From: Caldisericia bacterium | GTDB taxonomy: Bacteria > Caldisericota > Caldisericia > UBA6126 | Direction: 5' to 3' | DNA: 64,000 nucleotides | NCBI GenBank assembly: GCA_040767255.1 | Contig: JAXGOZ010000010.1 | Span: 155-64,154 of the forward strand | Shown here: positions 46,098 to 64,000 of the stretch, piece by piece | Layout: every line of letters begins with the position of its first letter | Position numbering within the stretch: the first letter of the stretch is position 1 | The notes under the pieces: generated by a model | Told to the model about the DNA's origin: nothing | Database searches by the model: none | The model's input: only the letters and a program-made list of their open reading frames with translations | Translations under genes and position numbers: made by a program

Positions 46098-46126
46098 CAA
46101 AAGTTTTCACAAACAATAAAAAAAAG

Positions 46127-46155
46127 CCGGTAGACATTTCTACCGGCTTTTTTTG
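46127..46155. terminator. bidirectional rho-independent terminator between pcrA and secF
   Basis: GCCGGTAGA-CATT-TCTACCGGC hairpin flanked by an A-run and a T-run. Confidence 0.8.
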
Positions 46156-46175
46156 TTACCCTTGAAAGGTTTGTC

Positions 46176-47264
46176 CTATCGTCTGCGTTTACTCTTATTT
46201 TTTGGTTTTGAAGTTTTTTTCTTATCAGTGGATTCAGAGGAATCCTTTTGGTCTATTTGTGCCATCGTTTTAGTGGAAGCTTTTGAGCCATTTTTCCTAG
46301 TTTTTACAAGATCATAAGAGTCAGATTTAAGAGCATCCAAATAAATTGGACGTAATTCTTTGTCATCGTCATCTTTTTGCCATCCGACAAGAATAGGAAC
46401 GACGATGTATAAAGAGGAGAATGTTCCAGCAAGCAATCCTACCAGCAGGATGGTTGAAAAGTCTCGAAGTGCACTTCCCATAAACACTGCTAGTACGATA
46501 ACACCGATCAAGGTGGTTACGGATGTATTGAAAGAACGAATCCAAGTGGTGGTAACAGACATGTTAGCAATTTCAGCAAATGTCATTCTATCTCGGTAAT
46601 ATTTTAAATTTTCTCGGACTCGGTCCAAAATGACAATACTGTCTTGTAACGAGTATGCCGTGATCGATAAAAGAGCTGCTATGGATGCTGTGTTAAACTG
46701 AATCCAGAGAAGTGACATTACGCCTAAGGTGATTCCAATATCGTGAGCAAGGGCAATAATAGCGGCAACGCCATCTTTAAAGCGGAATCGAATGGCAACA
46801 TATAGGAGAATAAACAGGAGTGCTAAGCCCAGGGTAAGAAAGGCATTTCTACGTAATTCACTACCAATGGTGGGTCCAATGAAGTCAATTTGCTTTGTAT
46901 CATCATTGACTTGCCCGATACTTTCTTCTAGGGATTGGTAAATTGCATCCCGTTCTTCGTTTGTGATAACCTTCATACGAATCATGAAATGCTGGGGGTT
47001 CAGCTTATCCTGCTGAATAATCGCTCTTTCTTGATTGTGTGTTGCCATAACATCGCGAATCATTTTTACGGTGGGAGGTTCTTCTGTAATGAAGTCAATG
47101 TTCATGACAACTCCACCAGTAAAATCTACTCCTAAATTAAAAGGAGAACCGTTGGTGCTGTATCGAATTCCCATGATGACGACGCTGACAATGAAAATAA
47201 TAAGTGCACTGTAAAGAGCAGGTTTTCTTTTTCCGATGATGTTCCATTGTTTAATTGAGACCAT
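46176..47264 (-). CDS. secF: protein translocase subunit SecF (with Lys/Arg-rich C-terminal tail)
   Basis: GVDFTGG, six-TM SecD/F core, GAAAGGAGG RBS. Confidence 0.9.
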   Translation of the reverse strand: MVSIKQWNIIGKRKPALYSALIIFIVSVVIMGIRYSTNGSPFNLGVDFTGGVVMNIDFITEEPPTVKMIRDVMATHNQERAIIQQDKLNPQHFMIRMKVITNEERDAIYQSLEESIGQVNDDTKQIDFIGPTIGSELRRNAFLTLGLALLFILLYVAIRFRFKDGVAAIIALAHDIGITLGVMSLLWIQFNTASIAALLSITAYSLQDSIVILDRVRENLKYYRDRMTFAEIANMSVTTTWIRSFNTSVTTLIGVIVLAVFMGSALRDFSTILLVGLLAGTFSSLYIVVPILVGWQKDDDDKELRPIYLDALKSDSYDLVKTRKNGSKASTKTMAQIDQKDSSESTDKKKTSKPKNKSKRRR

Positions 47265-47279
47265 GACTTCTCCTCCTTT

Positions 47280-48713
47280 CTATATTTCTTTCTCTGGGGA
47301 TTGTAATCCAAAGAGTTTTCCATTAATTTTCGGATTGTAAACGGCAATTAGGCTTAAAATGAATTGAGTAAAGAAATAAGAGGTGATCAATGCGGCTATA
47401 ATACCAGCTACCAAAGTAATGGCGAAACCTCGAATTTGGGTAGTACCAAAAGAATACAAGATGATCATGGCAATGAGCATGGAGAAGTTGGAGTCAAAAA
47501 TAGCCGTCCATCCATGTGCATAGCCAGCACCAATTGCAGAAAGGAATGTTCTGCCCTTTGCGTATTCTTCTTTGATACGCTCAAAAACAATAACGTTGGA
47601 GTCTACAGCCATACCAACTGACAAGACCATAGCACCAATTGCAGGGAGAGAAAGAGTAGCTTTGATCCCAAATAAGAAACCAAGATAGATGATGGTGTAC
47701 ATGAGCAGAGCTAGTGCACCGATACCACCTAAAAGCTTGTACATTAAAAGCAAGAAAAGAATGATTCCAAGAATGGCAATAATAGCACCGATCTCAGAGC
47801 TTTTAATTGTGTCTTGTCCCAGAGATGGGCCCACAACTCGTTCTTCTAAGAAAGTCATTTTTACAGGAAGAGCACCGCCCTGCAAGAGAACTGCTACTTC
47901 CTGAGCTTCTTGAATGCTTTCTTCTGTTTTTTCACCAAACGTAATAACAGCATCCCCTGTTGTGATTTCTTCATTTACCTTGGGAGCTATCAAGAGGGAA
48001 TCATCCAAATAGATTGAAATCGTTTTCTCAACATTTTCACGGGTTGCTTTGGCAAACAATTCTTTACCAACCTCGTCCCATTCTAGTTGTACTATGGGCA
48101 CTCGTGGTCCCATTTGATCCATTTGCTGATAAGCAAATGTAGCTTTTTTCAAGTTTTTACCAGTGACGAGAATATTCTCGTTTTCATCTTTGAATGTCAA
48201 AACAGCGACGCGGCCAATAATATCTTTGGCTTGTTCAATGTCAGAATATCCTGGTATATCTACTACAATACGGTCTTTTCCTTGTATAGAAACGGTTGCT
48301 TCCGATACCCCTAAGAAATTAATACGGTTTTCAATTACCTTTTTTGCTTGTTTTAATTCTTCGGCTGTAATAGCATTTAAAGCATCTTCTGATTGAAGGT
48401 CGTCATTGGTTACGACAAGCTTTTCTGCTTGCGTTGTTTCTTCAGTAACTTCGGTTGTGTCCTCAGATACTGGTTCGGTGGTTTCTGCAGAAGCATCTTC
48501 TGTAACTTCTTCTGAACCAGTTTCAACCAATTCTTCAGATGGTGCTTCATCTACACCTTTAATTGGGTGGGCTTCCATTACAAGGTGGACACCACCTCGC
48601 AAATCAAGTCCAAATTTAATCAAATTTTCTGAATAGTGATAGCCAATACTCCATATTGAGAGTCCAATCACAAGTATAATTACTATGAGTTGTCCCCATC
48701 TAATTCTCTTCAT
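47280..48713 (-). CDS. secD: protein translocase subunit SecD
   Basis: GLDLRGG, large periplasmic domain, C-terminal six-TM core. The ATG at 48713 (MKRIRWGQ) has the better RBS. The ORF-track start is 48740. Confidence 0.9.
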   Translation of the reverse strand: MKRIRWGQLIVIILVIGLSIWSIGYHYSENLIKFGLDLRGGVHLVMEAHPIKGVDEAPSEELVETGSEEVTEDASAETTEPVSEDTTEVTEETTQAEKLVVTNDDLQSEDALNAITAEELKQAKKVIENRINFLGVSEATVSIQGKDRIVVDIPGYSDIEQAKDIIGRVAVLTFKDENENILVTGKNLKKATFAYQQMDQMGPRVPIVQLEWDEVGKELFAKATRENVEKTISIYLDDSLLIAPKVNEEITTGDAVITFGEKTEESIQEAQEVAVLLQGGALPVKMTFLEERVVGPSLGQDTIKSSEIGAIIAILGIILFLLLMYKLLGGIGALALLMYTIIYLGFLFGIKATLSLPAIGAMVLSVGMAVDSNVIVFERIKEEYAKGRTFLSAIGAGYAHGWTAIFDSNFSMLIAMIILYSFGTTQIRGFAITLVAGIIAALITSYFFTQFILSLIAVYNPKINGKLFGLQSPEKEI

Positions 48714-48819
48714 AGGATCACCCTTTCTCGTGAGATTCAAACAAATAACTATTATATTTTATTACAGCAAATCGTCAATAAGTCGAAATTATGTGGTATA
48801 ATACTAAATTGGTGCCTCC

Positions 48820-49476
48820 ATGATAGAAGAAACACTTGAACAGTACCTACAAAAGCATGATTGGGATTTATATGAGGAAAAAAAACAAAAATTTGTACAA
48901 TTTCTTCGTTTAGTCCAAAAAGTGAATCCTCTTATCAATCTTGTATCCAAAGATACAGATGAAGAATTGGTGTATCGACATCTTCAAGACTGCCTTCAGA
49001 TTTTGCATTTTCAAATTTCATTGTTATCTCATCAACAATGGATTGATATTGGCTCCGGGGGAGGTTTTCCAGGAATCATTGCAGCCATTCTTTTCCCTTC
49101 CAATCCATTTTTTTTGGTGGAGTCCATTCGGAAAAAAGCAAGTTTTCTAATGTGGGCATCTATTGAAATCAAATTACCCAATGTTCAAGTATTACACCAA
49201 CGAGCTGAAAATGTAGTACATCTGCCCAATATTGTACATTCATGTTTCATTTTTTCTGCCTGAGGTGTTGGTACAATATCCTACTTGTATCCGTATTTCC
49301 AATCATCTTTGAATCAGCATGGAAAAAATCGATTCTTTGAAGAATCCTGAAGAGATTTCTTCATTCCTATTGTAGCACCTTCATGGGAGATTGAAAAACA
49401 CATTCAATATCCTTGTGATCGACACCGAAAAACATGTTGTCATGCCGCAAAGGAAACTAAATCAATTCCGTGCTGA
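48820..49476 (+). pseudogene. rsmG: 16S rRNA (guanine527-N7)-methyltransferase, in-frame TGA plus 3' frame breaks
   Basis: DIGSGGGFPGI SAM motif. TGA at 49261-49263 falls where the family has a conserved Arg (FIFSA-stop-GVGTISYL). The remaining C-terminus is split between frames. Confidence 0.75.
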
Positions 49477-49483
49477 AGAGGGA

Positions 49484-51011
49484 ATGTTAGTAAAAATAAA
49501 GTTTCGCCCTTCGGCGACTGGATCCAGTTCCCATTGATGTAGAAGTTGATGTTACCCAACGAGGGTTGCCTTTTTCTATTGCAGGACTGCCCGATACGGC
49601 TGTTCAGGAAAGTCGAGAGCGGGTACGATCAGCTTTAAAAAACAATGGTTTTCAGTTTCCCATGCACCGCATCACAGTGAATTTAGCGCCTGCTGATATT
49701 CGAAAAGAGGGTGCATGTTTTGATCTCCCTATAGCTATTGGTTTGTTAATTGCTTCCAACCAGATTCCAGAAATCCCACCTGATTCTTGTTTTATTGGGG
49801 AATTGTCTTTAGATGGCTCTTTGCGTGAAGTCAATGGAATTTTATCCATGAATTGCTATTTACACGATTTAAATCAAAATTCTTCGCAACCTTCTACTCC
49901 TCTTTTTTGTTTTCCTACGCCCAATATTGGTGAAATTGTGTACTCTGATATATCGCTTCTTCCTTGCCCTTCTTTACAGTTTGTAATTGAAGCCATTCAG
50001 TCTCAAACTAGCTCTGTGCCAATACCCGCTGTGCACTTTGCTCCTTCATCTGATCATTCGGACGATATGAAGGAGATTATCGGGCAGAGTTTTGCAAAAC
50101 GAGCCATGGAAGTTGCAGCTAGTGGAATGCATAATTTGTTGTTTGTTGGTCCTCCTGGTACTGGGAAAACAATGTTGGCTAGAAGAATACCAACCATACT
50201 ACCACTACTAACCTTCGATGAATCTGTTGAAGTGTCCAAAATATATAGTTCTACTGGTTTGTTGTCGAAAAAGGGAGGATTGATTCAAAAACGTCCTTTT
50301 CGATCACCTCATCATTCATCGTCTCTATCCTCAATGACCGGTGGAGGTTCGAAGCCTAAACCAGGAGAAATATCTTATGCACACCGAGGAGTCCTGTTCC
50401 TAGACGAGTTTCCAGAATTCCAAAGGAATGTAATCCATGCACTTAGACAACCCCTAGAAGATGGGTTTATTACCATTTCACGGGTTCACAGTAGTGTACA
50501 GTGGCCCTCTCGGTGCATGTTGGTAGCCGCCATGAATCCTTGCCCGTGTGGATACTATGGCGATTCGCAAAAAAACTGTATTTGCACTCCTTCCCAAATT
50601 CATAAGTACCAGGCCAAAATTAGAGGACCAATCTTAGACCGCATTGATATTGTAAGTGAGGTTTTGCGTGTAGATTCAAAAAAGCTACTCAAAATGGAAT
50701 TTGCAGAATCTTCTTCCGATATTCGAGAGCGTGTTGAAAAAGTTCATGAAATCCAGAAGGAACGCTATAAAGATGAACCATTTCATTATAATTCAGAAAT
50801 GTCTTCTCGTTCCCTTCGCAAACACTGCATACTAGACTCTGAAACTGAGACTTTTTTTGCTGAAGTAAGTGGAAAGCTTTCATTGTCTGGAAGAGGGCAC
50901 ATGAAAATGTTGAAAGTTGCACGCACAATAGCAGATATGAGAGAATCCCCTTCGATTCAAATGGAAGACTTATGCGAAGCTTTGCAGTATCGATTGCGAA
51001 GTGATATATAA
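49484..51011 (+). pseudogene. comM: YifB/ComM-family Mg-chelatase-like AAA+ protein, one 5' frameshift near 49498
   Basis: ATG at 49484 (MLVKIK) is in one frame. SFALRRLDPVPIDVEVDVTQRGLPFSIAGLPD and the rest (GPPGTGKTM, VLFLDEFPEF) are in the ORF 49566..51011 frame. Confidence 0.8.
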
Positions 51012-51045
51012 AAAAAACCAGGTTTGCGATGCAAACCTGGTTTTT
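51011..51045. terminator. bidirectional rho-independent terminator
   Basis: A7-CCAGGTTTGC-GAT-GCAAACCTGG-T5, between convergent comM and the serA-like gene. Confidence 0.8.
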
Positions 51046-51066
51046 AACAAATGAGATGATTTCTAC

Positions 51067-51975
51067 TTATTGAAAGAAATCATGAATAACGGATGCTACT
51101 TCTGTAGCAACACGGATTTGACCTTCTTTTGTTTGAGCACCAATATGAGGGGTTAGAATAACATTTTCAATTGCAAACAATGGGCTTTCTTTGGCAGGTT
51201 CTTTTTCGTAGACATCAATTCCAGCAAATGAAATCTTGCCAGACTGTAATGCTTCAACAAGATCTTTTTCAACGATGATACCCCCTCGAGCACAGTTAAT
51301 GATTGCTGCTCCATTTTTCATTTGACCAATGAAAGAGGCATCAATAAGGTTGCAGGTAGAATCAGTTTTGGGACAGTTTACACTAATAATATCGGATTCA
51401 GTTTTTATCACATCCATGGTGGTCATGGTAACGCCATCGATAGAACAAGTGGAAACTAACGGATCATAGGCAAGAACTTTCATGCCAAGAGCTACCGCTC
51501 TTTTTGCTGTTTCTTTACCAATGTTGCCCAGACCAATAATACCCAAGGTTTTTCCATATAATTCTAAGCCTTTGAATCGTTTCTTTTCCCACAAACCTTT
51601 TTTTGTGGAAACAGTAGCATCAGCTAAACCTCTCATCCCTGCAAGTGCCATTCCGATCACTAATTCAGCAACAGAAATGGAGGAAGCAAGAGGTGTGTTT
51701 TTCACAGTGATGTTTTTTTCTTTTGCAGTAACTTTATCAATGTTGTCAGTACCAACCCCACCTCGGACAATCAATTCTAGATTGCCTGGTTGATCCAAAG
51801 TATCTTTGGTAATCTTTGTTCTGGATCTGACAACAACAGCGTTGTATTCACCAATCTCATTTTTGAGATCTTCTGGTGTAATATCTGTCTTTTCAATTAC
51901 TTCAAAAGTTCCAAACGATTTTAAAGCTTCAACGCCTTCTTTGGCAACAGGATCAGCAATGAGAATTCGCTTCAT
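51067..51975 (-). CDS. D-isomer-specific 2-hydroxyacid dehydrogenase (short SerA-type 3-phosphoglycerate dehydrogenase, no ACT domain)
   Basis: GIIGLGNIGKETAKRA NAD motif and catalytic-region blocks NCARGGII and TPHIGAQT. The ATG at 51975 follows an AAAGGAG RBS. Confidence 0.8.
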   Translation of the reverse strand: MKRILIADPVAKEGVEALKSFGTFEVIEKTDITPEDLKNEIGEYNAVVVRSRTKITKDTLDQPGNLELIVRGGVGTDNIDKVTAKEKNITVKNTPLASSISVAELVIGMALAGMRGLADATVSTKKGLWEKKRFKGLELYGKTLGIIGLGNIGKETAKRAVALGMKVLAYDPLVSTCSIDGVTMTTMDVIKTESDIISVNCPKTDSTCNLIDASFIGQMKNGAAIINCARGGIIVEKDLVEALQSGKISFAGIDVYEKEPAKESPLFAIENVILTPHIGAQTKEGQIRVATEVASVIHDFFQ

Positions 51976-51986
51976 GGTTTTCTCCT

Positions 51987-53129
51987 TTATTTGGACAATG
52001 AACAAATAGCAGCAGAAATGCCTTTGCCTTTTTCGAAGGAGTAACCAAGTTCTGCCAATGTTCTTTCAATGGTTGCAAGGCCTAAAATGACGTCGTTAGG
52101 ACCAACATTACCCATGGCAGAAATCCGGAAAATTTTTCCTTTTAAATCTCCTTGACCGCCAGCAAAGGTGACTTGATACTTATCGCGTGCCAACTTAACA
52201 ATTTTCCCACCATCTACTCCATCGGGTACATTGACAGCAATACAGCAATCTCCGGTGTCTTCGTTGTAAAGAGTTAAGCCCAATGCTTTCACTCCTTCTC
52301 GGATAGCTTCTGAAAGTTTGTGATGTCGAGCGAAGATATTCTCAATACCTTCTTCTTTCATCATTCTGAGTGCAATGTTTAATTGTACAATAATGCTGAT
52401 GGCAGGTGTCCATGGCGTAGTATTTTTGGCATGGTTCTTATAGGCTTTTTCAGGTCAAAGTAGTATTTGGGAAGAAGTGGAGCTTTCCATTGCCTTTGAG
52501 CTCTTTCGTTCATGGTAATAAAGCCCCTAGAGCGGGGGTAACACCGATGCTTTTTGAGAACCAGATACTACTGCGTCAACTCCCCATTTGTCTGTGTATA
52601 ACGGTGTAACACCCAAACCAGAAACAGCATCTACAACTAAAGTGCTGGAGAAGTGCGTGTGATTTTGGCAATACTTTTCAATATCGGTAACTCCACCGCT
52701 TGACGTTTCAGATAAAGTCGTGAAAACAGCTTTGGCATCAGGGTTTTCTTTGAGTGCTTTTTCAATTTCTTCTGGCTTTACTTGTTCGATGCCTGGAATA
52801 CTAACAAGGCATTTCAACTAAATCTAAATGGAACGCTTTACACAGTTCAATCCAGCGTTCACCAAATTTTCCACCATTAACGGCAATAACTTTGTCCTGG
52901 GAGAACAAAGGTTGATGACAGAAGCCTCTAAAGCACCTGTTCCCGATGATGTCAACATAATCACCGGATTTTCAGTTTGAAAGATGTACTTCAGATTTTC
53001 AACGGCTTCTTCGAAGATTGCTTCAAATTGAGGTGTACGATTGAGGTACATGATCGGTAATGATGCAGATGCTAACACTTCTTCAGGAACCTGCGTTGGT
53101 CCTGGAGTTAAAAGAACTGGTTTACGCAT
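51987..53129 (-). pseudogene. class-V aminotransferase (serine-pyruvate / phosphoserine aminotransferase-like), split into at least 3 frames
   Basis: LLTPGPTQVP...SSGTGALEA (ORF 52824..53129), DAVSGLG...VVSGSQK (52527..52817), C-terminal domain (51987..52364). Confidence 0.75.
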
Positions 53130-53173
53130 TTAAATCCTCCTGACGTTTTTAATTGAAGCATACTGAAAAAACG

Positions 53174-53207
53174 AAAAAAAGCTGCCATTTCTAGCAGCTT
53201 TTTTTTA
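53174..53207. terminator. hairpin terminator downstream of the gdhA remnant
   Basis: AGCTGC-N8-GCAGCT, flanked by A7 and T8 runs. Confidence 0.6.
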
Positions 53208-53231
53208 TATAGAACGAGAATAAAGCTAGAA

Positions 53232-54566
<1,335 letters not shown>

Positions 54567-54719: not shown

Positions 54720-57023
54720 TTACGGTTCAAAAAAACCAATAGCAACTGATTTTTCTTCATCCATCAGTATTGTTAAGGTAGAATCAGGGATTTCATGTGA
54801 AACCTGAATCACACGAATCACATTTTCATATTTCTCAGCATCAGGCAAAATTTTCTTTAACAGATTTGGTTTCTCGAAGAATTCTTCATGAAAAACCGTT
54901 TCTTCTTGCCCTATATAGATGGGCAAGTATTGAATCTGAGCTTCAACCAAGTCTTGGAAGAAATGTGTGCCAAAAGAAAGTTCTGGTACATAATTTTGTC
55001 GGACTTTTGCAATCTCAACAAGCAAGGAGGTGTTGTTGATATCACTGTATCCCACCGAGACACCAAGTTTGATATCTCCCCTACTACCCCACCTACCCGG
55101 ACCAATCAACACGAATTTTCTTCTTGGGAGTGCTTGATTTAATTTTCCTACAATGTGTCCAATTTCAACCAAATCCTGATAGGTAGGTAGTTTACTGTAT
55201 TCTTCGGGCTGAATATACACAATGTATTCAATACCGTAAATTTCACCTGAAGAAATTGTTTGGTGGTTTGAAAACAGAATTCGATCATCCGGAATATTTT
55301 TCGGGATAGAAATCTCCTGGGAGTATTTTATATAGCTTTGTGGGCGGCATTGCAACAGATACAACTTATGGATATCTCCATCACAAGCGAATTCGATATC
55401 AACAGGGATTTGAAGTTGTTCTTGCAGAATCGATAGAATATCCCGGATTTGATGAATAAAAGGTCCATCCTTGAATAGTCGATCAAAGGTGAGAATAGGT
55501 GTGTCTTCGTGGATATTGAACATATTTCCCGTAGGGGTAAACAAACTGCCATCCCGATAGAGCGATATGATTTGATTGATGGAAGGGTAATTATAACCAA
55601 TTTCACGAACTAGTTTTTCAAAAGAAATGGTTTCAAACTGACCGGTTAACAAATTTATAACATCAATGTTTCTTTGTGAATACCGGAGTTTGTCGTTCAT
55701 ATCTACATTCACTCGTAGATTCGGTTGTCCAGGGCTTATCAGAGCAGGGTAGTCGTTATCGACTCGATCTACAGCCCGAGTTCCTAAACCAGCTACCACC
55801 CGAGCAATTCCATCTTCTCTTTTGATACGAGGAGACCACCGAAACTCATTTTGACTGAAAGCAACTCCCGCAAAAGCAGGAAAAAAATATTTACCATTTT
55901 TTCTACCCACTACCTCTTGGATCAATACAGCCATTTCTTCGTTGAAATCCAAAAGCCCCTTTTCTCTTCGATATTCAATAGGATCCGGACCAAAGACGCT
56001 AGCATACACTTCCAATATTGCATCAATTAGAGATTCAAGACGTTCTTTTTTTGACCCTTGGTTGGCTACAAAAAGGCTTTTGTATTTTCCTGCAAACGAA
56101 GCATTTGAACTATCCTCAAGAAGACTTGAAGAGCGCACAATGAGTGGGTTATCTCCAAAATCGTCCAATGCAAAATTTAGGCTTGCCACGATTTCAGGGG
56201 GGATTGCTGAATTTTTAAAAATTTGTTCCAAATATGGATACTCTTGTTTTATTTCTATTGGTCTTCTGTATTTTATGTTAGGAGCTTCTTCAAGGGCATT
56301 AAAATGAAGGAATTCAATAATTCCATCCGAGGTTAAATACCAGGTTTTTGGAATGGATAAATTACGGATGGAAACGTAATCTTTCTTTGCCTCGCGAAGA
56401 ATGTTACGAGCGCGTAAAAAACCAGCAGCTTTTCCACCTAATTTACCATTCCCCCGCCTTGGACCAATTGTATGGGAGAGGATATCAATGAAATCGGATA
56501 CATAAAAAAAATCTTTTGATGTATTGATGAAATGTAGATCTTCACTTAAAAAACGACGGATAAAGGCAACCCGAATACCAATATTTTCTTCTTTTGATAG
56601 AAATGATACCGAGTCTTTGATGCTGGCAAATTTAAACAGGGCATTAGTAATATCTGCCAAGGGAACATCTCTTTTTTCTGCAGTCATGGTTAAAAATCTG
56701 GCTTTTTCATGTTTTAACCAAAGTTTTATCATTTGCGTGATGCGCTCGGAAGAAAGCTCTTCTTCTGCGATTTGAAATACTTTTTCAATCATTTGCTGCA
56801 ATAGGTCTGGCTCAATTCGATGAATGGGGACATTGTCGTTTTTCACCTTGTTTTCAGCAAATGAATTTGAGTTGGCTTCTAATTGTTTCATTAGCTCTTC
56901 AATGCGCTTAATATGACATTTGTACAAATAGTGCATCATTTTTCGACCCAATCTATTGATTAAGACTGGATCAGTGTATTTCAATAGCTCAATAATAATT
57001 TTCCATTCTTGTTTTTCATCCAT
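54720..57023 (-). CDS. large PEP/pyruvate-binding (PPDK_N ATP-grasp) domain protein with uncharacterised N- and C-terminal modules
   Basis: GGKAAGFL, LIVRSSSLLEDSSNASFAGKYKS, MAVLIQEVVG, VDIEFA...LLQCRPQ; C-terminal GPGRWGS...FGTHFFQD. The ATG at 57023 follows AAGGAG and overlaps the upstream stop by 8 nt. Confidence 0.8.
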   Translation of the reverse strand: MDEKQEWKIIIELLKYTDPVLINRLGRKMMHYLYKCHIKRIEELMKQLEANSNSFAENKVKNDNVPIHRIEPDLLQQMIEKVFQIAEEELSSERITQMIKLWLKHEKARFLTMTAEKRDVPLADITNALFKFASIKDSVSFLSKEENIGIRVAFIRRFLSEDLHFINTSKDFFYVSDFIDILSHTIGPRRGNGKLGGKAAGFLRARNILREAKKDYVSIRNLSIPKTWYLTSDGIIEFLHFNALEEAPNIKYRRPIEIKQEYPYLEQIFKNSAIPPEIVASLNFALDDFGDNPLIVRSSSLLEDSSNASFAGKYKSLFVANQGSKKERLESLIDAILEVYASVFGPDPIEYRREKGLLDFNEEMAVLIQEVVGRKNGKYFFPAFAGVAFSQNEFRWSPRIKREDGIARVVAGLGTRAVDRVDNDYPALISPGQPNLRVNVDMNDKLRYSQRNIDVINLLTGQFETISFEKLVREIGYNYPSINQIISLYRDGSLFTPTGNMFNIHEDTPILTFDRLFKDGPFIHQIRDILSILQEQLQIPVDIEFACDGDIHKLYLLQCRPQSYIKYSQEISIPKNIPDDRILFSNHQTISSGEIYGIEYIVYIQPEEYSKLPTYQDLVEIGHIVGKLNQALPRRKFVLIGPGRWGSRGDIKLGVSVGYSDINNTSLLVEIAKVRQNYVPELSFGTHFFQDLVEAQIQYLPIYIGQEETVFHEEFFEKPNLLKKILPDAEKYENVIRVIQVSHEIPDSTLTILMDEEKSVAIGFFEP

Positions 57024-59952
57024 GATTTTCTCCTTCTTGCATTGGTTTTGTAAGAACACCAAGGCTTTGCTTGCCGTCCACTTTAACATCAAATGTAGAA
57101 ACGGTTTGATACACCGTTACAAACTTTGTTTTCATGATAGGGAGTTGTGAATTGATCCATTCCCAATCTATAAACTGGTTAGGTTTGTTTTGCCGGATAG
57201 TAAAATACCCAATATGCAATGAAGTAATGTTTTGGAAGAAATGAGAACCTTGAGAGGGATCAATGTGCATACCGGGAAGATCATACTCTACAAATGTTTT
57301 GATTTTAGAAATATGATGCCACTGTACAGGGATGCCTAGCCATGGGTCGGACGAACCCCATCTTCCTGGTCCCATCAAAACATATTGTTGGTGATTGTCT
57401 GTAAAATATTTGTTCACTTCATCGATTTCTTGCACAATAGTTCTTGTTTGCGATAGGTCAAATGTAAGAGGATTTACCACCACTATGTGTGACAAGGATC
57501 CAATATGACCATTTCCAAGAGCGTTGTTTGTATAACAGAAAGCCTTGTCTGGATTGATTTCTGAGGATTTAATCGTACATGAATTTTCATATTTCATCAT
57601 TGGGCGTACCTGTAAGAAACCAAACCGTATTGAATCCCACGAGGGTGGTATCTGTAGAGCACATTCGATTTCAACTGGGGTAGCCATTGCATCCTCACAA
57701 ATTTGTAGAAGATTTTGTATACAAGCTTGAAAAGGTTTCTCCATGCTTTTTAGTAAACGATGAAATGTGATAATTTTCGGTCCTGCCCTATGAATTGTAT
57801 CATATATTCGATCTTCACCTGCAGCATACGACGATGCAATACCATCCAAAGAGCCATCTTGCAATCCTACGTGAATTGGATGTAGATCCATAAACTCGTC
57901 TTCTTCAATGGTAAAAGAACGCGTATAGGGATTCATATTGATCGCCCAGAATTTTTTCTGAGTAGTTTGTAGTGCGGATTCGGTGTTGGATAACTGAGGG
58001 ATTTTTTTCGGATAAGCAGGTGAGAATTGAAGGGATGTTTCTCCATCCACAATGGATTTTCCTAAACCCATTGCAAGCTGCATGAAACCGTCTTCTGGTC
58101 TAGCTTGATCGAAAGGGTAATAATTGTAGGATCGAATTACTCCAGATGCTTCGGGGTAAAAACCAGATTTTTTTCTTGATCCAACAACTTTTTGAATAAT
58201 GACTGCCATTTTTTCGTCTTCTGGTATATGACTGGTGGATTCCATATAGGTACGGGCTTGTTTTGAAAATACTGAAGCATAGACGAGTTTGATGGCATTG
58301 CATAATTGGTTGAAACGTAAATCAAAGGAAGATTCATTATTCGGAATCATTTTTGTTGAGTAAATGCCTGCAAAAGGATGATACAACGAATCTTCAAGTA
58401 GGCTAGAAGATCGAATCACCAAAGGGACAGTAAACTGTTTTGCAATGTTTCTAAGATCTCCAATAATAGTAGCTGGAATATCTGACTGAAGAAATATTCT
58501 AGCAATTTGGCGATCCGAAAGATCAGACTTGAACATGTGTTCTAAATGATTCAGTCGAATAAAGTCATCAAAAACATCTGTTCCGATAATGATGGATTGG
58601 GGTATAAACAACTGGAAATGGGGACTATTTTGTATAGATTTTTCTTCGGTGAGAAGTCGATTAAAAAAGGACAAACCTCTTGCTTTTCCCCCTATCGAGC
58701 CTTCTCCAATTTTTCCAATCGTCCATTCTTCCAACGGAAATCTTCTTGAATACGGTACAATAGAACCTCTTGTTTCTTGATAAATCTCTTTTTGAATCGC
58801 GGTTTTCAATATTGAAATGACTTGTTCAAATGGAGAAGATTTCTTTTCAAGGTTTTTTGTAATTTCTGCAAGTGTGTATTCGCAATGAACAAGGAACCAT
58901 CTGGAAAGGTTGCCATTGCGTACTAGTCTCATAAAAGATTCTTCGTTCAACGAATCAATCACTTCTAAAAAAGTTTGTACCGAGGGTATTTTTGTTTTCA
59001 CTTTTCCGTTTGAGTCAATGAGTTGTAAATCTCCAAATCCAAAATAGGAAGTAAGAGTGTTTTTGATATCAGATAGGAGAGTTTTTGAGTTTTTATTAAT
59101 GCATATGACGGGATGCTCCTGAATTATGGGTGCTAAACAGACAGTGCTGGACTGTAGAACGATCGGAAGTGAAGGATCATATTCCCAGATTCTTTTTGCC
59201 AAGCTTAAACCACTAGTGTCAGATTGACCGTTTTCCATGGGATATTGCATATCTGTTATTACACCAATAATCTGTTGATGATATTGATTCAGAATCTGAA
59301 TTGCTTGTTCGTATGTCTTTGCATGGAGAACCTTGGTGCGGGTTTTTTGTTGAAATATTTTCCGACTATAGGAAGTGTTCTCCTGCACGAGTTTCTTTAC
59401 TTCGAGCCATAGAGTTTTGTACAGAATGTTTAAATACGAGGAGTAGTATTGAATGTTGTCCTCAACAAAAAGGATAATGGGGATAGGAATCAACTGAGAA
59501 TCGTGGAAGACATTTTGTTTGTCTTCTACAAGCTCCAAAATACTTGCAATAATTCTGCTTTCACCATTCCAAAGAAAAATATCTACAACAATATCTGGAT
59601 ATTTTTCTTCAAAATCGTCCAGTCCCATATGGTTGTACATTAGAAGTACGATAGGAAGAGATGGGTATTTATTTTGTACTTTTTGGATAAAAGCATGAAC
59701 GGATGTATCCATTTTGCGAACACATTGAATCAGTATATCGACTTTACATTGTTCCAACTTATCCAATGTCATATTTTCGTCATATGCTTTGATAAATTGT
59801 GGAGTATAACCCAATTCACGTTCTTTATACAGAGAAGCAATATGATCTTCCATAGATCCATCTTCTTCTAAAAGGTAAGCATCATAACGACTTGCCACTA
59901 ATAAAACATGTCGAACTTGATATGGATTAAGATCCTCGGTGTTAACTAGCAT
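57016..59952 (-). CDS. receiver-domain-fused PEP/pyruvate-binding (PPDK_N ATP-grasp) domain protein, paralogue of the downstream gene
   Basis: 978 aa. A degenerate REC-like domain, then a REC-like domain (ILFVEDN ... VITDMQYP ... IVLQSS), then GGKARGLSF, LVIRSSSLLEDSLYHPFAGIYST, MAVIIQKVVG, FLQVRPM. C-terminal GPGRWGS...QGSHFFQN. Confidence 0.8.
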   Translation of the reverse strand: MLVNTEDLNPYQVRHVLLVASRYDAYLLEEDGSMEDHIASLYKERELGYTPQFIKAYDENMTLDKLEQCKVDILIQCVRKMDTSVHAFIQKVQNKYPSLPIVLLMYNHMGLDDFEEKYPDIVVDIFLWNGESRIIASILELVEDKQNVFHDSQLIPIPIILFVEDNIQYYSSYLNILYKTLWLEVKKLVQENTSYSRKIFQQKTRTKVLHAKTYEQAIQILNQYHQQIIGVITDMQYPMENGQSDTSGLSLAKRIWEYDPSLPIVLQSSTVCLAPIIQEHPVICINKNSKTLLSDIKNTLTSYFGFGDLQLIDSNGKVKTKIPSVQTFLEVIDSLNEESFMRLVRNGNLSRWFLVHCEYTLAEITKNLEKKSSPFEQVISILKTAIQKEIYQETRGSIVPYSRRFPLEEWTIGKIGEGSIGGKARGLSFFNRLLTEEKSIQNSPHFQLFIPQSIIIGTDVFDDFIRLNHLEHMFKSDLSDRQIARIFLQSDIPATIIGDLRNIAKQFTVPLVIRSSSLLEDSLYHPFAGIYSTKMIPNNESSFDLRFNQLCNAIKLVYASVFSKQARTYMESTSHIPEDEKMAVIIQKVVGSRKKSGFYPEASGVIRSYNYYPFDQARPEDGFMQLAMGLGKSIVDGETSLQFSPAYPKKIPQLSNTESALQTTQKKFWAINMNPYTRSFTIEEDEFMDLHPIHVGLQDGSLDGIASSYAAGEDRIYDTIHRAGPKIITFHRLLKSMEKPFQACIQNLLQICEDAMATPVEIECALQIPPSWDSIRFGFLQVRPMMKYENSCTIKSSEINPDKAFCYTNNALGNGHIGSLSHIVVVNPLTFDLSQTRTIVQEIDEVNKYFTDNHQQYVLMGPGRWGSSDPWLGIPVQWHHISKIKTFVEYDLPGMHIDPSQGSHFFQNITSLHIGYFTIRQNKPNQFIDWEWINSQLPIMKTKFVTVYQTVSTFDVKVDGKQSLGVLTKPMQEGENHG

Positions 59953-60114: not shown

Positions 60115-60143
60115 ATAAAAAAAAGGGAGGGGTATCCCCTCCC
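60115..60143 (-). terminator. rho-independent terminator of gdh
   Basis: GGGAGGGG-TAT-CCCCTCCC hairpin. On the minus strand it is followed by eight T. Confidence 0.8.
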
Positions 60144-60168
60144 TTTTAAAGCGTGAAATGAATAGGTT

Positions 60169-61455
60169 CTATACCCATCCACGAATTTTGCATGCATCAG
60201 CAACACGCTGAATAGCAATCATGTACGCTGCATCACGCATGTATACATTGCGCGATCTTGCTAAGGCAGATACTTTCAAGTATGCATCCGTCATTTTTGC
60301 ATCCAATTTAGAAAGAGCTTCTTCTTTGGACCAGAAATAGTTCATATTGCATTGTACTTGTTCAAAATAACTGCAAGTGACTCCACCAGCATTGGCAAGA
60401 AAATCTGGAATCATAAAGATGCCTTTTTCTTGAATAATAGCGTCGGCTTCTGGAGTTGTAGGTCCATTGGCTCCTTCTGCAATTACTTTTACTTTGTCGG
60501 AAATTTTAGTGACAGAATCTTTGGTGATTTGATTTTCTAAAGCTGCAGGGACGAGAATGTCTACATCCTGTTCAATCCAGGCATCTCCATCCATAACTTC
60601 GTAACCCAGTTGTCTGGCTTTGTCTTTGTCGATGCCGCCGAAACGATCAGTGATGGATATCAATTCGTCACAATTAATGCCAGATTTACGAACAAAGGTA
60701 TAAGATTTTTGATCATTTTGATCCCAGCAAGAAACACAAACTGCTTTTCCGCCATATTCTTGATACAAACGAACGGCATATTGAGCAACATTGCCGTAGC
60801 CTTGGAATGCTGCTGTGGTTTTTTGAATGTCAATACCAAGTTCACGAAGGGCTTCGCGAAGAGTATAGATTACTCCATAACCAGTTGCTTCAGTTCGGCC
60901 TAATGAGCCACCCATTCCCACGGGTTTTCCTGTGATCATTCCTGGGTATTTTCCATGATGGATAGTTTCATATTCATCCATCATCCATAACATGTGTTGA
61001 GAACTTGTCATTACGTCAGGTGCAGGTACATCTTGGACGGGACCAATATTGTATGCCAGTTGTCGAATCCAACCACGACAAATACCTTCTTGTTCACGTT
61101 CAGATAGTTGGTGAGGGTCACAAATGACACCTCCCTTACCACCACCAAGTGGAATATCAACTACAGCACATTTCCACGTCATCCAGGTGGCTAAAGCTCT
61201 AACAGTATCAATGGTTTCTTGTGGATGGAATCGGATCCCACCTTTTGCAGGTCCTCTAGCATCGTTGTGTTGCACACGGAAACCTCGGAAAACTTTAAAA
61301 GAACCATCATCCATACGGACAGGAATAGAAAAATGAAACTCGCGGAGAGGATTGCGAAGCAATTCTCTTGTGGCTTGATCCAAGTCTAGCTTTTCAGCAA
61401 CTCCATCAAACTGTTCCTGTGCCATTTGAAACGCATTAAATGATTTATCGGACAT
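60169..61455 (-). CDS. gdh: glutamate dehydrogenase (intact, ~428 aa Gdh/RocG-like type)
   Basis: PAKGGIRFHP, PLGGGKGG, GRTEATGYG, FQGYGNVA, EGANGPTTPEA blocks. Confidence 0.95.
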   Translation of the reverse strand: MSDKSFNAFQMAQEQFDGVAEKLDLDQATRELLRNPLREFHFSIPVRMDDGSFKVFRGFRVQHNDARGPAKGGIRFHPQETIDTVRALATWMTWKCAVVDIPLGGGKGGVICDPHQLSEREQEGICRGWIRQLAYNIGPVQDVPAPDVMTSSQHMLWMMDEYETIHHGKYPGMITGKPVGMGGSLGRTEATGYGVIYTLREALRELGIDIQKTTAAFQGYGNVAQYAVRLYQEYGGKAVCVSCWDQNDQKSYTFVRKSGINCDELISITDRFGGIDKDKARQLGYEVMDGDAWIEQDVDILVPAALENQITKDSVTKISDKVKVIAEGANGPTTPEADAIIQEKGIFMIPDFLANAGGVTCSYFEQVQCNMNYFWSKEEALSKLDAKMTDAYLKVSALARSRNVYMRDAAYMIAIQRVADACKIRGWV

Positions 61456-61501: not shown

Positions 61502-61529
61502 ATTCTATTGAAATAAGAGTGCTTGTCAA
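61502..61529 (-). promoter_or_regulatory. promoter-like element for gdh, TTGACA-16 nt-TAGAAT
   Basis: On the minus strand, TTGACA is at 61529-61524 and TAGAAT at 61507-61502, about 45 nt upstream of the gdh ATG. Confidence 0.5.
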
Positions 61530-61754: not shown

Positions 61755-62309
61755 ATGAACATGAGTGAATTGAATCAGTTTAACAGCATGTGTAAAAAAA
61801 GTAGTGATGAGCTAGCACACGATACTTCTCAGTTGGACGAAGTATTACAGGCTTACAAACATAAACCAGGCAGCATGATCACTATTTTACAAAAGGCTCA
61901 AGACATCTACGGTTACTTACCCAAAGATATCATTCGTTATATCTCACAAGAAACTACCATTAAAACACCTATCATATACGGTGTAGCGACTTTTTATACA
62001 CAATTTCGCTTACAACCTGTAGGAGAGTTTCTCATATTGCTCTGTAAGGGTACTGCCTGTCACGTTAATGGAGCCAATGAGATTGAGCAAACCATCTGTG
62101 ATGAACTTAACATACAAAATGGTGAAACTACAGAAGATGGTTTGTTTACCCTAAACAACGTTGCTTGTCTGGGTTGTTGCAGTCTATCTCCCGTAATGAT
62201 GATCAACGGAGAAACCTATGCAAAAATGACTCCAAAAAAGGCTCGATCCATTCTTCGAGATCTACGTAAGAAAAGCTCCATAAATAAAGGCAAGGAGGAT
62301 CAAGTATGA
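61755..62309 (+). CDS. NuoE/HydC-like thioredoxin-fold [2Fe-2S] subunit
   Basis: Cys pattern CKGTAC...CLGCC and PVMMINGETY, typical of the NuoE 24-kDa family. Confidence 0.85.
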   Translation: MNMSELNQFNSMCKKSSDELAHDTSQLDEVLQAYKHKPGSMITILQKAQDIYGYLPKDIIRYISQETTIKTPIIYGVATFYTQFRLQPVGEFLILLCKGTACHVNGANEIEQTICDELNIQNGETTEDGLFTLNNVACLGCCSLSPVMMINGETYAKMTPKKARSILRDLRKKSSINKGKEDQV

Positions 62310-64000
62310 AGATAATCATCGGTCAGGGAAGTTGTGGAATTGCTGCGGGAGCCGACAAAGTTACGGTAGCAATTCAGAAGGAACTTGAATCTAGAAATCA
62401 CCCGCTAGAGATCGAATTGGCTGGTTGTTGCGGTACCTGCTATCTTGAACCTATTGTAGATGTTGTTTCAGAAAATGGACAAAAAACAACATTTGTGTCT
62501 GTAAAGCCAGAGCACATACCAGAAATTCTTGATTTTGCTATTCATCAGAAGCAACCAAAAGATGCAATGATGATGGGTGAGAACGATCAAGCTTCCTTGG
62601 ACAAACAGGTTCGTATTGCTCTGCGCAATGCAGGAATTTTGAACCCGGAGAAAATTGAAGATTATCTCGCAAATGATGGCTACAAGGCTATTCAAAAATG
62701 TTTGTTAGAAATGACACCAGAAGACGTTATCGAAGATGTGAAAATATCTGGCTTAAGAGGACGAGGAGGGGCTGGGTTTCCTACTTGGTTTAAATGGCAG
62801 GCTGCGAATCAACAAAAAGCTACACCAAAATATATTGTATGCAATGGAGATGAGGGTGACCCCGGAGCATTTATGGACAGGAGCATATTAGAAGGAGACC
62901 CCCATAGCGTTATTGAGGGCATGATGATAGGTGGTTATGCTATTGGTGCAAACGAAGGTATCATTTATGTCCGGGCTGAGTATCCTTTAGCGATTAAACG
63001 ATTAGAAATTGCCTTAAAACAAGCCAGAGAGAAGGGAATACTTTGGTAAGAATATTTTCGGTACCGGTTTTGATTTTGATATATGGATTAAAGCTGGCGC
63101 AGGTGCTTTTGTGGAGAAGAAATGCACTTATAGCATCATTAGCAACGAGGTATGCCCCGATTGAAACCACCATTTCCGGCTCAAAAAGGCTACTGGGGAA
63201 AGCCAACAAATATCAATAATGTAGAAACATTTGCTAATATTCCTTGGATATTACTCTCCGGAGGAAGTGCCTTTGCAGCCTTGGGTACTGAAAAAAGCAA
63301 AGGAACCAAAGTGTTTGCCCTTGCTGGAAAAATACAGCGAGGTGGATTAATTGAAATTCCTATGGGCCTCACATTGCGGGAAGTTATATATGATATTGGT
63401 GGCGGCATTCAAGACGATAAAGCATTCAAAGCAGTTCAAATGGGAGGTCCCTCAGGTGGATGTATTCCCGCTACACTTCTAGACACTCCTATTGATTATG
63501 AATCGATCACTGCCACAGGAGCTATTATGGGTTCTGGTGGAATGATTGTCATGGATGAAACTACTTGTATGGTGGATATGGCTAGATTCTTTTTGGACTT
63601 TACCTGTAAAGAATCTTGTGGAAAATGCGTTCAGTGTCGAGTAGGCACCAAACGAATGCTTGAAATTTTAGAAAGAATCACCAATGGAGAAGGTAAAGAT
63701 GGTGATATTGAATTACTAGAAGATCTTTGTCAAAAAGTAAAAGATGGTTCTCTATGTGCTTTAGGTGGAACAGCTCCTAATCCAGTATTGACAACCCTAC
63801 AATATTTCCGTGACGAATACGAAGCTCATATTTATGAACACCGTTGTCCAGCACACAATTGTAAGAAGTTGTTAACGTATACCATCAAAGAAGATTTATG
63901 TGTTGGATGTGGAGCGTGTGCAAAGAAATGTCCATCCAACGCAATCAGTGGTGAACCCAAAAAAGTACACTCTATTCATCAAGAACTTTGCATTAAATGC
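62306..64000 (+). pseudogene. NuoF/HydB-like NADH-binding FMN/Fe-S flavoprotein subunit, four frame breaks at 63045-63145, 3' partial at window edge
   Basis: GLRGRGGAGFPT and VCNGDEGDPGAF lie in ORF 62306..63049. GKNIFGTGFDFDI, CGEE and ALIASL are in shifting frames. From 63146 one frame is open to 64000 ([12 protein letters not shown]...[10 protein letters not shown]...[12 protein letters not shown]). Confidence 0.8.

Follow-up and report, generated by a model that had tools for sequence, protein, structure and literature searches.

A glutamate dehydrogenase-linked pair of paralogous ATP-grasp proteins with a shared C-terminal histidine module and no detectable phosphohistidine swivel domain

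INTRODUCTION

GlnE, GlnD, and AceK, large enzymes of several domains that receive sensory inputs, act by reversible modification of an enzyme of central metabolism, and in the two-subunit dikinases HpeHI and phenylphosphate synthase, the ATP-grasp domain is on one subunit and the histidine domain is on another. VadK (Rv1127c), a truncated pyruvate phosphate dikinase (PPDK), is a histidine autokinase that interacts with methylcitrate-cycle enzymes to tune flux (bioRxiv 10.1101/2025.10.30.685616). Cj1418, annotated as a phosphoenolpyruvate synthase (PEPS)/PPDK protein, is a kinase that phosphorylates L-glutamine with ATP, acting on a glutamate-family amino acid (PMC10971088, citing Taylor et al. 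2017). Here we describe two adjacent genes, designated A and B, in a 64,000-nucleotide (nt) stretch of DNA from a Caldisericia bacterium (GenBank assembly GCA_040767255.1, contig JAXGOZ010000010.1, positions 155 to 64,154, forward strand). This stretch is referred to here as the window, and coordinates are counted from its first letter. An initial sequence-only reading of the window had singled out the pair as ATP-grasp proteins of the kind found in PEPS, PPDK, and rifampin phosphotransferase (RPH). A and B are most likely an uncharacterized system that acts on or with glutamate dehydrogenase (GDH). In the literature searched, no paper was found on the A/B family, its motifs, or its GDH linkage.

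RESULTS

Gene A (57016..59952, minus strand) encodes 978 amino acids (aa) from its ATG and contains a pseudo-receiver, a putative receiver, a linker domain, a PPDK_N ATP-grasp domain, and a C-terminal histidine module. Gene B (54720..57023, minus strand) encodes 767 aa, with a helical N-terminal domain followed by a PPDK_N ATP-grasp domain and a C-terminal histidine module. The gene B open reading frame (ORF) spans 54720-57092, with a TTG at 57092, and its first ATG (MDEKQ...) is at 57023; the resulting 767-aa length is that of the closest homologs. The stop of gene A overlaps the start of gene B by 8 nt, and the two genes are translationally coupled in the window. A and B share 30% identity across 539 aligned residues (E = 3e-47) and are true paralogs; the alignment is colinear, opening where the ATP-grasp domain starts and extending into the C-terminal module. 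The sequence-only reading had described tandem paralogs of 978 and about 767 aa with an 8-nt overlap, and each part of that description was borne out.

The ATP-grasp domains were matched by Pfam PF01326 (PPDK_N) over residues 419-790 of A (57583..58698, minus strand; E = 4.5e-34) and residues 194-571 of B (55311..56444, minus strand; E = 1.1e-53). Residues K423, R514, E761, E763, and Q781 are invariant in 27 aligned A-type sequences, as are K198, R297, E544, Q558, and R560 in 29 aligned B-type sequences. These positions fall in the PPDK_N motifs GGK, RSS, D/E-I-E, and LQ.RP and, because they are invariant, the two paralogs seem capable of catalysis. Foldseek was run with an AlphaFold2 model of B (pLDDT 77, pTM 0.75), and the top matches were RPH, PEPS, HpeI, and PPDK (E = 1e-10 to 1e-7). 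The best of these was RPH (5hv1, E = 1.1e-10), the matches to PEPS and PPDK ranged from E = 3e-10 to 1e-7, and HpeI (9goj) matched with an E value of 8e-9. A search of PDB sequences returned weak matches solely to the N-domains of PEPS and RPH. The predicted PEPS/PPDK/RPH-type core therefore stands, as PPDK_N was found in both proteins and the motifs quoted in its support are present with invariant residues. Classical carboxylate-amine ATP-grasp ligases (biotin carboxylase, carbamoyl phosphate synthetase, and D-Ala-D-Ala ligase) were rejected as relatives, since their Foldseek matches were marginal (E >= 0.047, TM <= 0.15) and Pfam gave no match.

Neither protein could be placed in a characterized enzyme family. 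NCBIfam returned partial matches over the ATP-grasp region to PEPS, PigC/RedH, RPH, and PRK05849 models, with scores of 11 to 64 bits against cut-offs of 456 to 1350. Membership in the RPH/PigC group was rejected, with NF041857 at 21 to 37 bits against a cut-off of 999, PigC at 46 to 49 bits against 1300, and the swivel domain undetected. VadK-type membership was rejected as well, since the ATP-grasp is present in A and B and the canonical PPDK central histidine domain was not detected. NF004508/PRK05849, which we take to be the Cj1418 L-glutamine kinase family, matched B at 31.3 bits over residues 288-343 only (cut-off 501), and A was not listed; membership in this family was also rejected. 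No PADLOC family matched A or B, and an anti-phage defense system was set aside on this basis.

The remainder of a conventional dikinase was not detected in either protein. Pfam did not find the swivel domain PEP_mobile (PF00391) or the phosphoenolpyruvate (PEP)-utilizer barrel PEP-utilizers_C (PF02896) in A or B, each of which terminates about 190 aa past its ATP-grasp domain. A regular-expression search for a GGxTSHAAI-type motif found none in the six-frame ORFs of the window or in the ORFs of 84 related loci with flanks of up to 10 kb. A separate swivel or barrel subunit encoded nearby was thereby ruled out. These results bear on the simplest explanation, that A and B are a conventional PEPS or PPDK, for which the presence of PPDK_N speaks, together with the names "pyruvate, water dikinase" and "phosphoenolpyruvate synthase" on some JGI/NCBI records. 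The NCBIfam PEPS/PPDK models scored only 11 to 64 bits against cut-offs of 456 to 1063, and with two of the defining domains absent and no GGxTSHAAI-type ORF in the vicinity, this explanation is effectively refuted by domain content and has next to no probability.

In place of these domains, A and B both end in a module of about 190 aa. It occupies residues 791-978 of A (57019..57582, minus strand), where it reads GPGRWGS ... GSHFFQ with R864 and H904 invariant, and residues 572-767 of B (54723..55310, minus strand), where it reads GPGRWGS ... GTHFFQ with R644 and H687 invariant. The two modules are homologous, as each matched members of the other family by blastp with E values of about 1e-8. 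The pattern N..L.G.GRWGS..D..G..V...I...E...P..S.G.HFFQ...Y is invariant in both families, and H904 of A and H687 of B are the sole invariant histidines in the respective alignments. Searches with the B module found no Pfam or PDB-sequence match, confirming the earlier view of a shared C-terminal module outside any recognized family. A profile of the module reached 2408 clusters at 50% identity. As far as we can tell, the module is a new domain.

The B module was modeled alone with AlphaFold2, and the model was confident (pLDDT 89.3, pTM 0.89), with the two motif loops less so. The histidine sits at the N terminus of a helix, after the G-(T/S) pair and beside the glycine-rich GPGRWGS loop. Foldseek, which had been suggested as a check on this module, gave no PDB match at E <= 1e-3; the insignificant neighbors were nucleotide-binding alpha/beta folds, e.g., CD38 and P-loop NTPases. 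As the sole invariant histidine, placed where PEPS has its swivel domain, the module histidine could by analogy play the role of the swivel histidine.

The module might itself be a very divergent swivel with insertions, in which case A and B would be ordinary RPH/PigC-type dikinases and the missing swivel an artifact of divergence. The module begins right after the (L)Q.RP of the ATP-grasp domain, which is the position of the swivel in Escherichia coli PpsA. Swivel domains have their histidine at a helix N terminus between two strands, and the modeled histidine of the module is placed in the same way. By eye, and as a lead only, four segments can be paired colinearly: ALGNGxI..VYV with GxGxxxGxVxVI, YVLxGPGRW with ILVxxxTDPxW, SxG(T/S)HFFQ with GGxT(S/C)HAAI, and VxIDGxxxxGV with VxVDGxxGxV. 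Against this, PEP_mobile matched none of 23 C-terminal modules with Pfam even at E <= 10, and a search of PDB sequences with the module profile found no dikinase. Profiles of 23 and 161 module sequences were also compared by hhalign with 15 genuine PEP_mobile domains, drawn from E. coli ppsA and plasmid-borne ppsA, ptsI, ptsP, and other PEP-utilizing genes. The probabilities were below 0.5%, with E values of 0.13 to 0.66 and alignments that were inconsistent between runs. In the Foldseek search of the module model, PEPS, PPDK, and RPH chains were absent from the top 50. All four approaches were thus negative or insignificant for a canonical swivel hidden in the module, and we consider a divergent one quite unlikely. 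The sequence-only reading had found neither a swivel domain nor a PEP-utilizer barrel; Pfam, hhalign, and Foldseek agree on the former and Pfam on the latter, and no bona fide swivel domain came to light in either protein.

We next considered the genomic setting of the pair. Loci were taken from one-genome-per-species contigs (80 loci) and from exact-protein look-ups (4 loci), and A-like, B-like, and GDH genes were found in them by blastp. GDH linkage was counted over the 64 loci that were seeded with B and had 1.8 kb or more of upstream sequence. Of these, 46 carry a GDH gene immediately upstream (same strand, within 700 nt), and 56 carry one anywhere in the locus. The rough expectation at a random location is about 1%, assuming 1 to 3 GDH genes per ~3-Mb genome. 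The linked GDHs are 66 to 96% identical to GDH1, the intact GDH beside gene A in the window, and loci L001 to L003, obtained by separate look-ups, show the same linkage. The loci span more than 10 phyla, with sources that include Caldisericota, Acidobacteriota, Ignavibacteria, Calditrichia, Aminicenantes, Planctomycetota, Cloacimonadota, Fermentibacteria, Riflebacteria, Marinimicrobia, Zixibacteria, and Thermoplasmata archaea. The statement that the window's pair is flanked only by GDH genes was therefore right as to the flanks and wrong in treating them as incidental, as the neighborhood comparison proposed at that stage makes plain.

The linkage extends to GDHs of another subfamily. A tblastn search of a plasmid collection with the C-terminal module found three Bacteroidales records. 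In Parabacteroides distasonis (L103, NZ_OY725790.1, 4915-14207), a 984-aa A-type gene with a receiver and PPDK_N (WP_041525632.1) is divergent from gdhA, and beyond it, at a distance of 3.5 kb, is a second gene for an NADP-GDH. The same GDH/A-type gene/GDH layout is found in Phocaeicola massiliensis (L105, OY726056.1, 5829-15797). The Parabacteroides and Phocaeicola GDHs are of the family-I gdhA type and only 34% identical to GDH1 of the window. The association of A-type genes with such distant GDHs argues for function rather than inherited synteny. The GDH neighbors are the strongest functional clue to A and B, because the adjacency is conserved across phyla and across GDH subfamilies.

The P. 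distasonis and Phocaeicola records are filed as "plasmids," and contigs of chromosome size (~5 Mb) are reported to carry the same protein. A homolog search with the P. distasonis protein returned near-identical P. distasonis sequences only. Between the A-type gene and gdh2 of P. distasonis are APH+RapZ_C, NTP_transferase, and EEP genes. These were rejected as partners on two grounds, namely their resemblance to genes for sugar-kinase/uridylyltransferase recycling and their absence in Phocaeicola.

Gene order and domain content vary among the loci. The most frequent arrangements are a GDH gene followed by a short A gene (~590 aa, no receivers) and a long B gene (~1060 aa), at 19 loci; GDH followed by long B, at 15 loci; and GDH followed by long A and then B, at 8 loci (5 with long B and 3 with standard B). 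Long B proteins (e.g., L035:9542-12715) have two extra regions, a C-terminal NTP_transf_2 nucleotidyltransferase and an N-terminal region of ~150 aa that is conserved, contains an ELNCLY... motif, and has no Pfam match. The A and B versions of the window are the minority architecture. Natural A-B fusions (P0241, P0242, and P0243) of 1523 to 1654 aa carry two copies of the C-terminal module, and P0241 and P0242 (1639 and 1654 aa) have two PPDK_N stretches each. Among the 67 loci whose downstream sequence is long enough, 27 have a metallophosphoesterase gene convergent to the end of B, and these come from several bacterial phyla as well as Thermoplasmata; they fall within L016 to L084 (e.g., L081:10230-11078 and L018:12658-13503, both minus strand). 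The encoded protein is ~285 aa with the motifs DxH, GD, GNDD, and GHxH. No linked metallophosphoesterase was found in the 64-kb window.

The search with the B type gave more than 7,900 matches, and that with the A type gave about 800 among the candidates scored. The proteins are named "PEP/pyruvate-binding domain-containing protein," "pyruvate, water dikinase," "CheY-like," and similar in their source records. The closest public contig, DAIMET010000004.1 (L005), is labeled a Calditrichota metagenome-assembled genome and is 99% identical over B residues 1-678. The next-closest relatives are 72 to 77% identical and are labeled Caldisericota or Caldisericia, which makes the taxonomic label of the source organism a tentative one.

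Linkage to a metabolic enzyme in an operon is typical of pathway partners, and it is possible, if rather doubtful, that the pair works on small molecules, as a dikinase or ligase of glutamate or nitrogen metabolism that uses ATP to activate a metabolite of the GDH reaction. Candidate substrates would be glutamate, glutamine, 2-oxoglutarate, ammonia, or the nicotinamide cofactor, the pocket would be the helical N-domain of B or the C-terminal domain, and the nucleotidyltransferase of long B would nucleotidylate the phosphorylated product. Most characterized PPDK_N enzymes beyond PEPS and PPDK phosphorylate small molecules, and the Cj1418 L-glutamine kinase offers a precedent. The top structural matches of B include RPH and HpeI, its partial NCBIfam matches include PigC/RedH and, weakly, NF004508/PRK05849, and the insignificant Foldseek neighbors of the C-terminal domain are nucleotide-binding folds. 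NuoE/NuoF-type NAD(P)H-handling genes also recur at the cassette. However, the NCBIfam scores are far under their cut-offs (e.g., NF004508 scored 31 bits where 501 are required, and PigC 49 where 1300 are), and it is unusual for pathway enzymes to carry receiver, sensor-like, or Pol-beta-type nucleotidyltransferase add-ons. Moreover, besides GDH and the phosphoesterase there are no conserved pathway genes around the cassette, and central glutamate metabolism has no known reaction that needs such activation.

The N-terminal regions of A and B differ from those of the conventional dikinases. Residues ~14-135 of A (59548..59913, minus strand) form a degenerate receiver-like domain with weak matches to the receiver region of NtrC (E = 1.7e-4); it has no acidic pocket, with VLLVAS in place of the usual acidic pair. 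A second, putative receiver follows at residues ~156-290 (59083..59487, minus strand), with E164, D165, D234 (the putative phospho-acceptor), S268, and K287. Pfam matched Response_reg over residues 194-269 with an E value of 0.014 and 16 bits against a cut-off of 30.2. The five hallmark residues are conserved in 27 homologs, most A homologs have a precomputed PF00072 match, and the receiver of the P. distasonis homolog scored 28.2 bits against the same Pfam cut-off. The second receiver is therefore plausibly functional, judging from its sequence. The sequence-only reading had proposed a degenerate receiver followed by one with an acidic pocket; the second is made plausible by the conserved hallmarks, and the first is backed weakly by the NtrC match.

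Residues 1-190 of B (56454..57023, minus strand) are all helical in the AlphaFold2 model, in which DSSP assigned helices through residues 6-183. Many residues of this domain are invariant, including W7, R24, W102, D119, R156, and R157, and no Pfam or NCBIfam match was found within it, in agreement with its first description as helical and of no recognizable family. No histidine kinase gene was found among the ORFs of the window flanks or in the Pfam-annotated syntenic Caldisericia locus L003, as had also been reported for the surroundings of the pair.

In the window, GDH1 (60169..61455, minus strand) lies directly upstream of gene A on the same strand and encodes an intact GDH of 428 aa (Pfam ELFV_dehydrog_N, E = 4e-55; ELFV_dehydrog, E = 8e-70). 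A promoter-like site with 11 of 12 consensus positions lies upstream of GDH1 (61502..61529, minus strand), in a region that as a whole is not enriched for such sites over shuffled sequences. Between GDH1 and gene A is a strong terminator-like hairpin (60121..60147, minus strand); its 12-bp stem, with 7 G-C pairs, precedes a run of T residues, and the sequence beyond it has no convincing promoter-like site. The hairpin and its T run suggest that GDH1 is strongly expressed and that read-through into A-B is attenuated. Expression of A and B may thus come from read-through and be weaker than that of GDH.

Downstream of B are the frameshifted remnants of a second GDH gene, GDH2 (53235-54500, minus strand), which tblastn with the intact GDH2 of L003 placed in three frames; in L003 the second GDH is intact. 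Small indels disrupt several genes near the pair over window positions 43829-54500, and A, B, and GDH1 are intact. An aminotransferase gene (51990-53129) has local frameshifts and in-frame stops, UvrD/PcrA is split into 43829-44677 and 44691-46097, and the genes for RsmG and ComM are disturbed at their starts. Such disruptions may reflect indel errors in the assembly or genuine decay of the genes.

On the other side, NuoE-like and NuoF-like genes (61755-63049, plus strand, continuing toward 64000) are divergent from GDH1. A NuoE-NuoF set is also found beside the cassette in L002, L003, L100, and L102, and in L003, L100, and L102 it is accompanied by a large Fer4_20/Pyr_redox_2/molybdopterin fusion protein. 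This recurrence suggests a wider neighborhood of glutamate oxidation and NAD(P)H disposal.

DISCUSSION

We tentatively propose, at somewhat less than even odds, that A and B associate as two subunits into a heteromeric phosphotransfer enzyme, driven by ATP, that arose from the nucleotide-binding half of PEPS/PPDK and works with the adjacent GDH. By analogy with PEPS, PPDK, RPH, and VadK, the ATP-grasp domain would take a phosphoryl group from ATP and place it on the histidine of the C-terminal module, which would hand it on; alternatively, the ATP-grasp domain could directly phosphorylate a bound substrate. The acceptor may be GDH itself, in which case glutamate oxidation or ammonia assimilation would be under reversible covalent control, or it may be a small molecule of the GDH reaction. 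An unlinked kinase would phosphorylate D234 of the A receiver and thereby gate the activity. The sequence-only reading had cast the pair as a phosphorelay-controlled, ATP-dependent modifying enzyme; the architecture that it described is supported, and the modifying role is a putative one.

A regulatory reading, with GDH as the target, is favored by analogy over a small-molecule acceptor. The receiver of A and the extra N-terminal domain and nucleotidyltransferase of long B would be sensory add-ons, and the convergent metallophosphoesterase is frequent. Together with these add-ons and the phosphoesterase, the sizes of the proteins resemble those of GlnE, GlnD, and AceK, and VadK provides a precedent. 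The fuller form of this reading is an unrecognized system that reversibly modifies GDH, in which phosphorylation would proceed through a new histidine-carrier domain, nucleotidylation would be added in the long forms, and the metallophosphoesterase would serve as the eraser. We regard that form as unlikely. A 1996 study by Baggio and Morrison (J Bacteriol 178:7212) reportedly described "trans-acting gene(s)" affecting Bacteroides GDH activity.

Several observations weigh against a GDH-directed phosphotransfer system. The C-terminal module has no detectable homology to phosphohistidine domains by Pfam, PDB profile, hhalign, or Foldseek, and the phospho-carrier role of its histidine is consequently an analogy. 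In the window, GDH1 and gene A are separated by the terminator-like hairpin. No GDH gene was found within 7 to 10 kb at the environmental Bacteroidota A-only loci L004, L100, and L101 or at that of Prevotella oral taxon 299 (L104), which has an A-type gene, and none was found in the 8-kb flanks of L102. Finally, the GDH link is one of genomic context and could reflect co-regulation or a shared pathway and not modification.

GDH is the gateway between amino acid carbon and ammonia in protein-fermenting anaerobes and gut Bacteroidales, and we know of no covalent control of a bacterial GDH comparable to that of glutamine synthetase by GlnE or of isocitrate dehydrogenase by AceK. The A/B family is widespread, with at least 2408 clusters at 50% identity in more than 10 phyla, including cultured Parabacteroides and Phocaeicola, and is annotated merely as "PEP/pyruvate-binding domain-containing protein" or, wrongly, as PEPS. 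If A and B are a GDH-linked phosphotransfer system, then thousands of annotations would be corrected, the dikinase toolkit would gain a new C-terminal catalytic or carrier domain, and there would be a testable route to the tuning of nitrogen flux in anaerobes, among which the gut Bacteroidales are genetically tractable. If the system modifies GDH, then anaerobic bacteria and archaea would gain a posttranslational switch on glutamate oxidation and ammonia assimilation, and the "trans-acting gene(s)" of 1996 for Bacteroides GDH activity would be identified.

As far as we can tell, the ATP-grasp half of A and B is of an already known kind, whereas the C-terminal domain, the paired or fused architecture, the receiver and nucleotidyltransferase variants, and the pan-phylum GDH linkage are new. 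The ATP-grasp domain is homologous to that of PEPS and PPDK, with the motifs GGK, RSS..ED..FAG, D/E-I-E, and LQ.RP; unlike those enzymes, A and B have no swivel domain, no PEP-utilizer barrel, and other N- and C-terminal domains. RPH and PigC/RedH share the N-terminal PPDK_N with A and B and likewise lack the PEP/pyruvate TIM barrel, and all of these proteins combine an ATP-grasp domain, extra domains, and a C-terminal domain with a conserved histidine. A canonical PEP_mobile swivel is part of RPH and PigC and was not detected in A and B; moreover, A and B differ from them in being a GDH-linked paralogous pair with receiver or nucleotidyltransferase add-ons. Like HpeHI and phenylphosphate synthase, the A/B system would spread a dikinase function over more than one polypeptide, and the HpeI ATP-grasp subunit resembles B. 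Unlike in those two-subunit dikinases, the ATP-grasp domain and the C-terminal module are present on both subunits. Cj1418 shows that the superfamily can phosphorylate nitrogen metabolites; its genomic setting is capsule biosynthesis and not GDH.

Among the regulators of central metabolic enzymes, GlnE and GlnD use Pol-beta-type nucleotidyltransferase domains, as the long B forms do, and the sequence kinship of A and B with GlnE, GlnD, and AceK is limited to this nucleotidyltransferase fold. VadK differs from A and B in its canonical central histidine domain (His422), in being a single protein with no receiver, in its restriction to actinomycetes, and in its methylcitrate-cycle partners. VadK is also PPDK derived and without a PEP/pyruvate domain, and as a dikinase that has become a regulator in central metabolism, it is the closest functional model for the A/B system.

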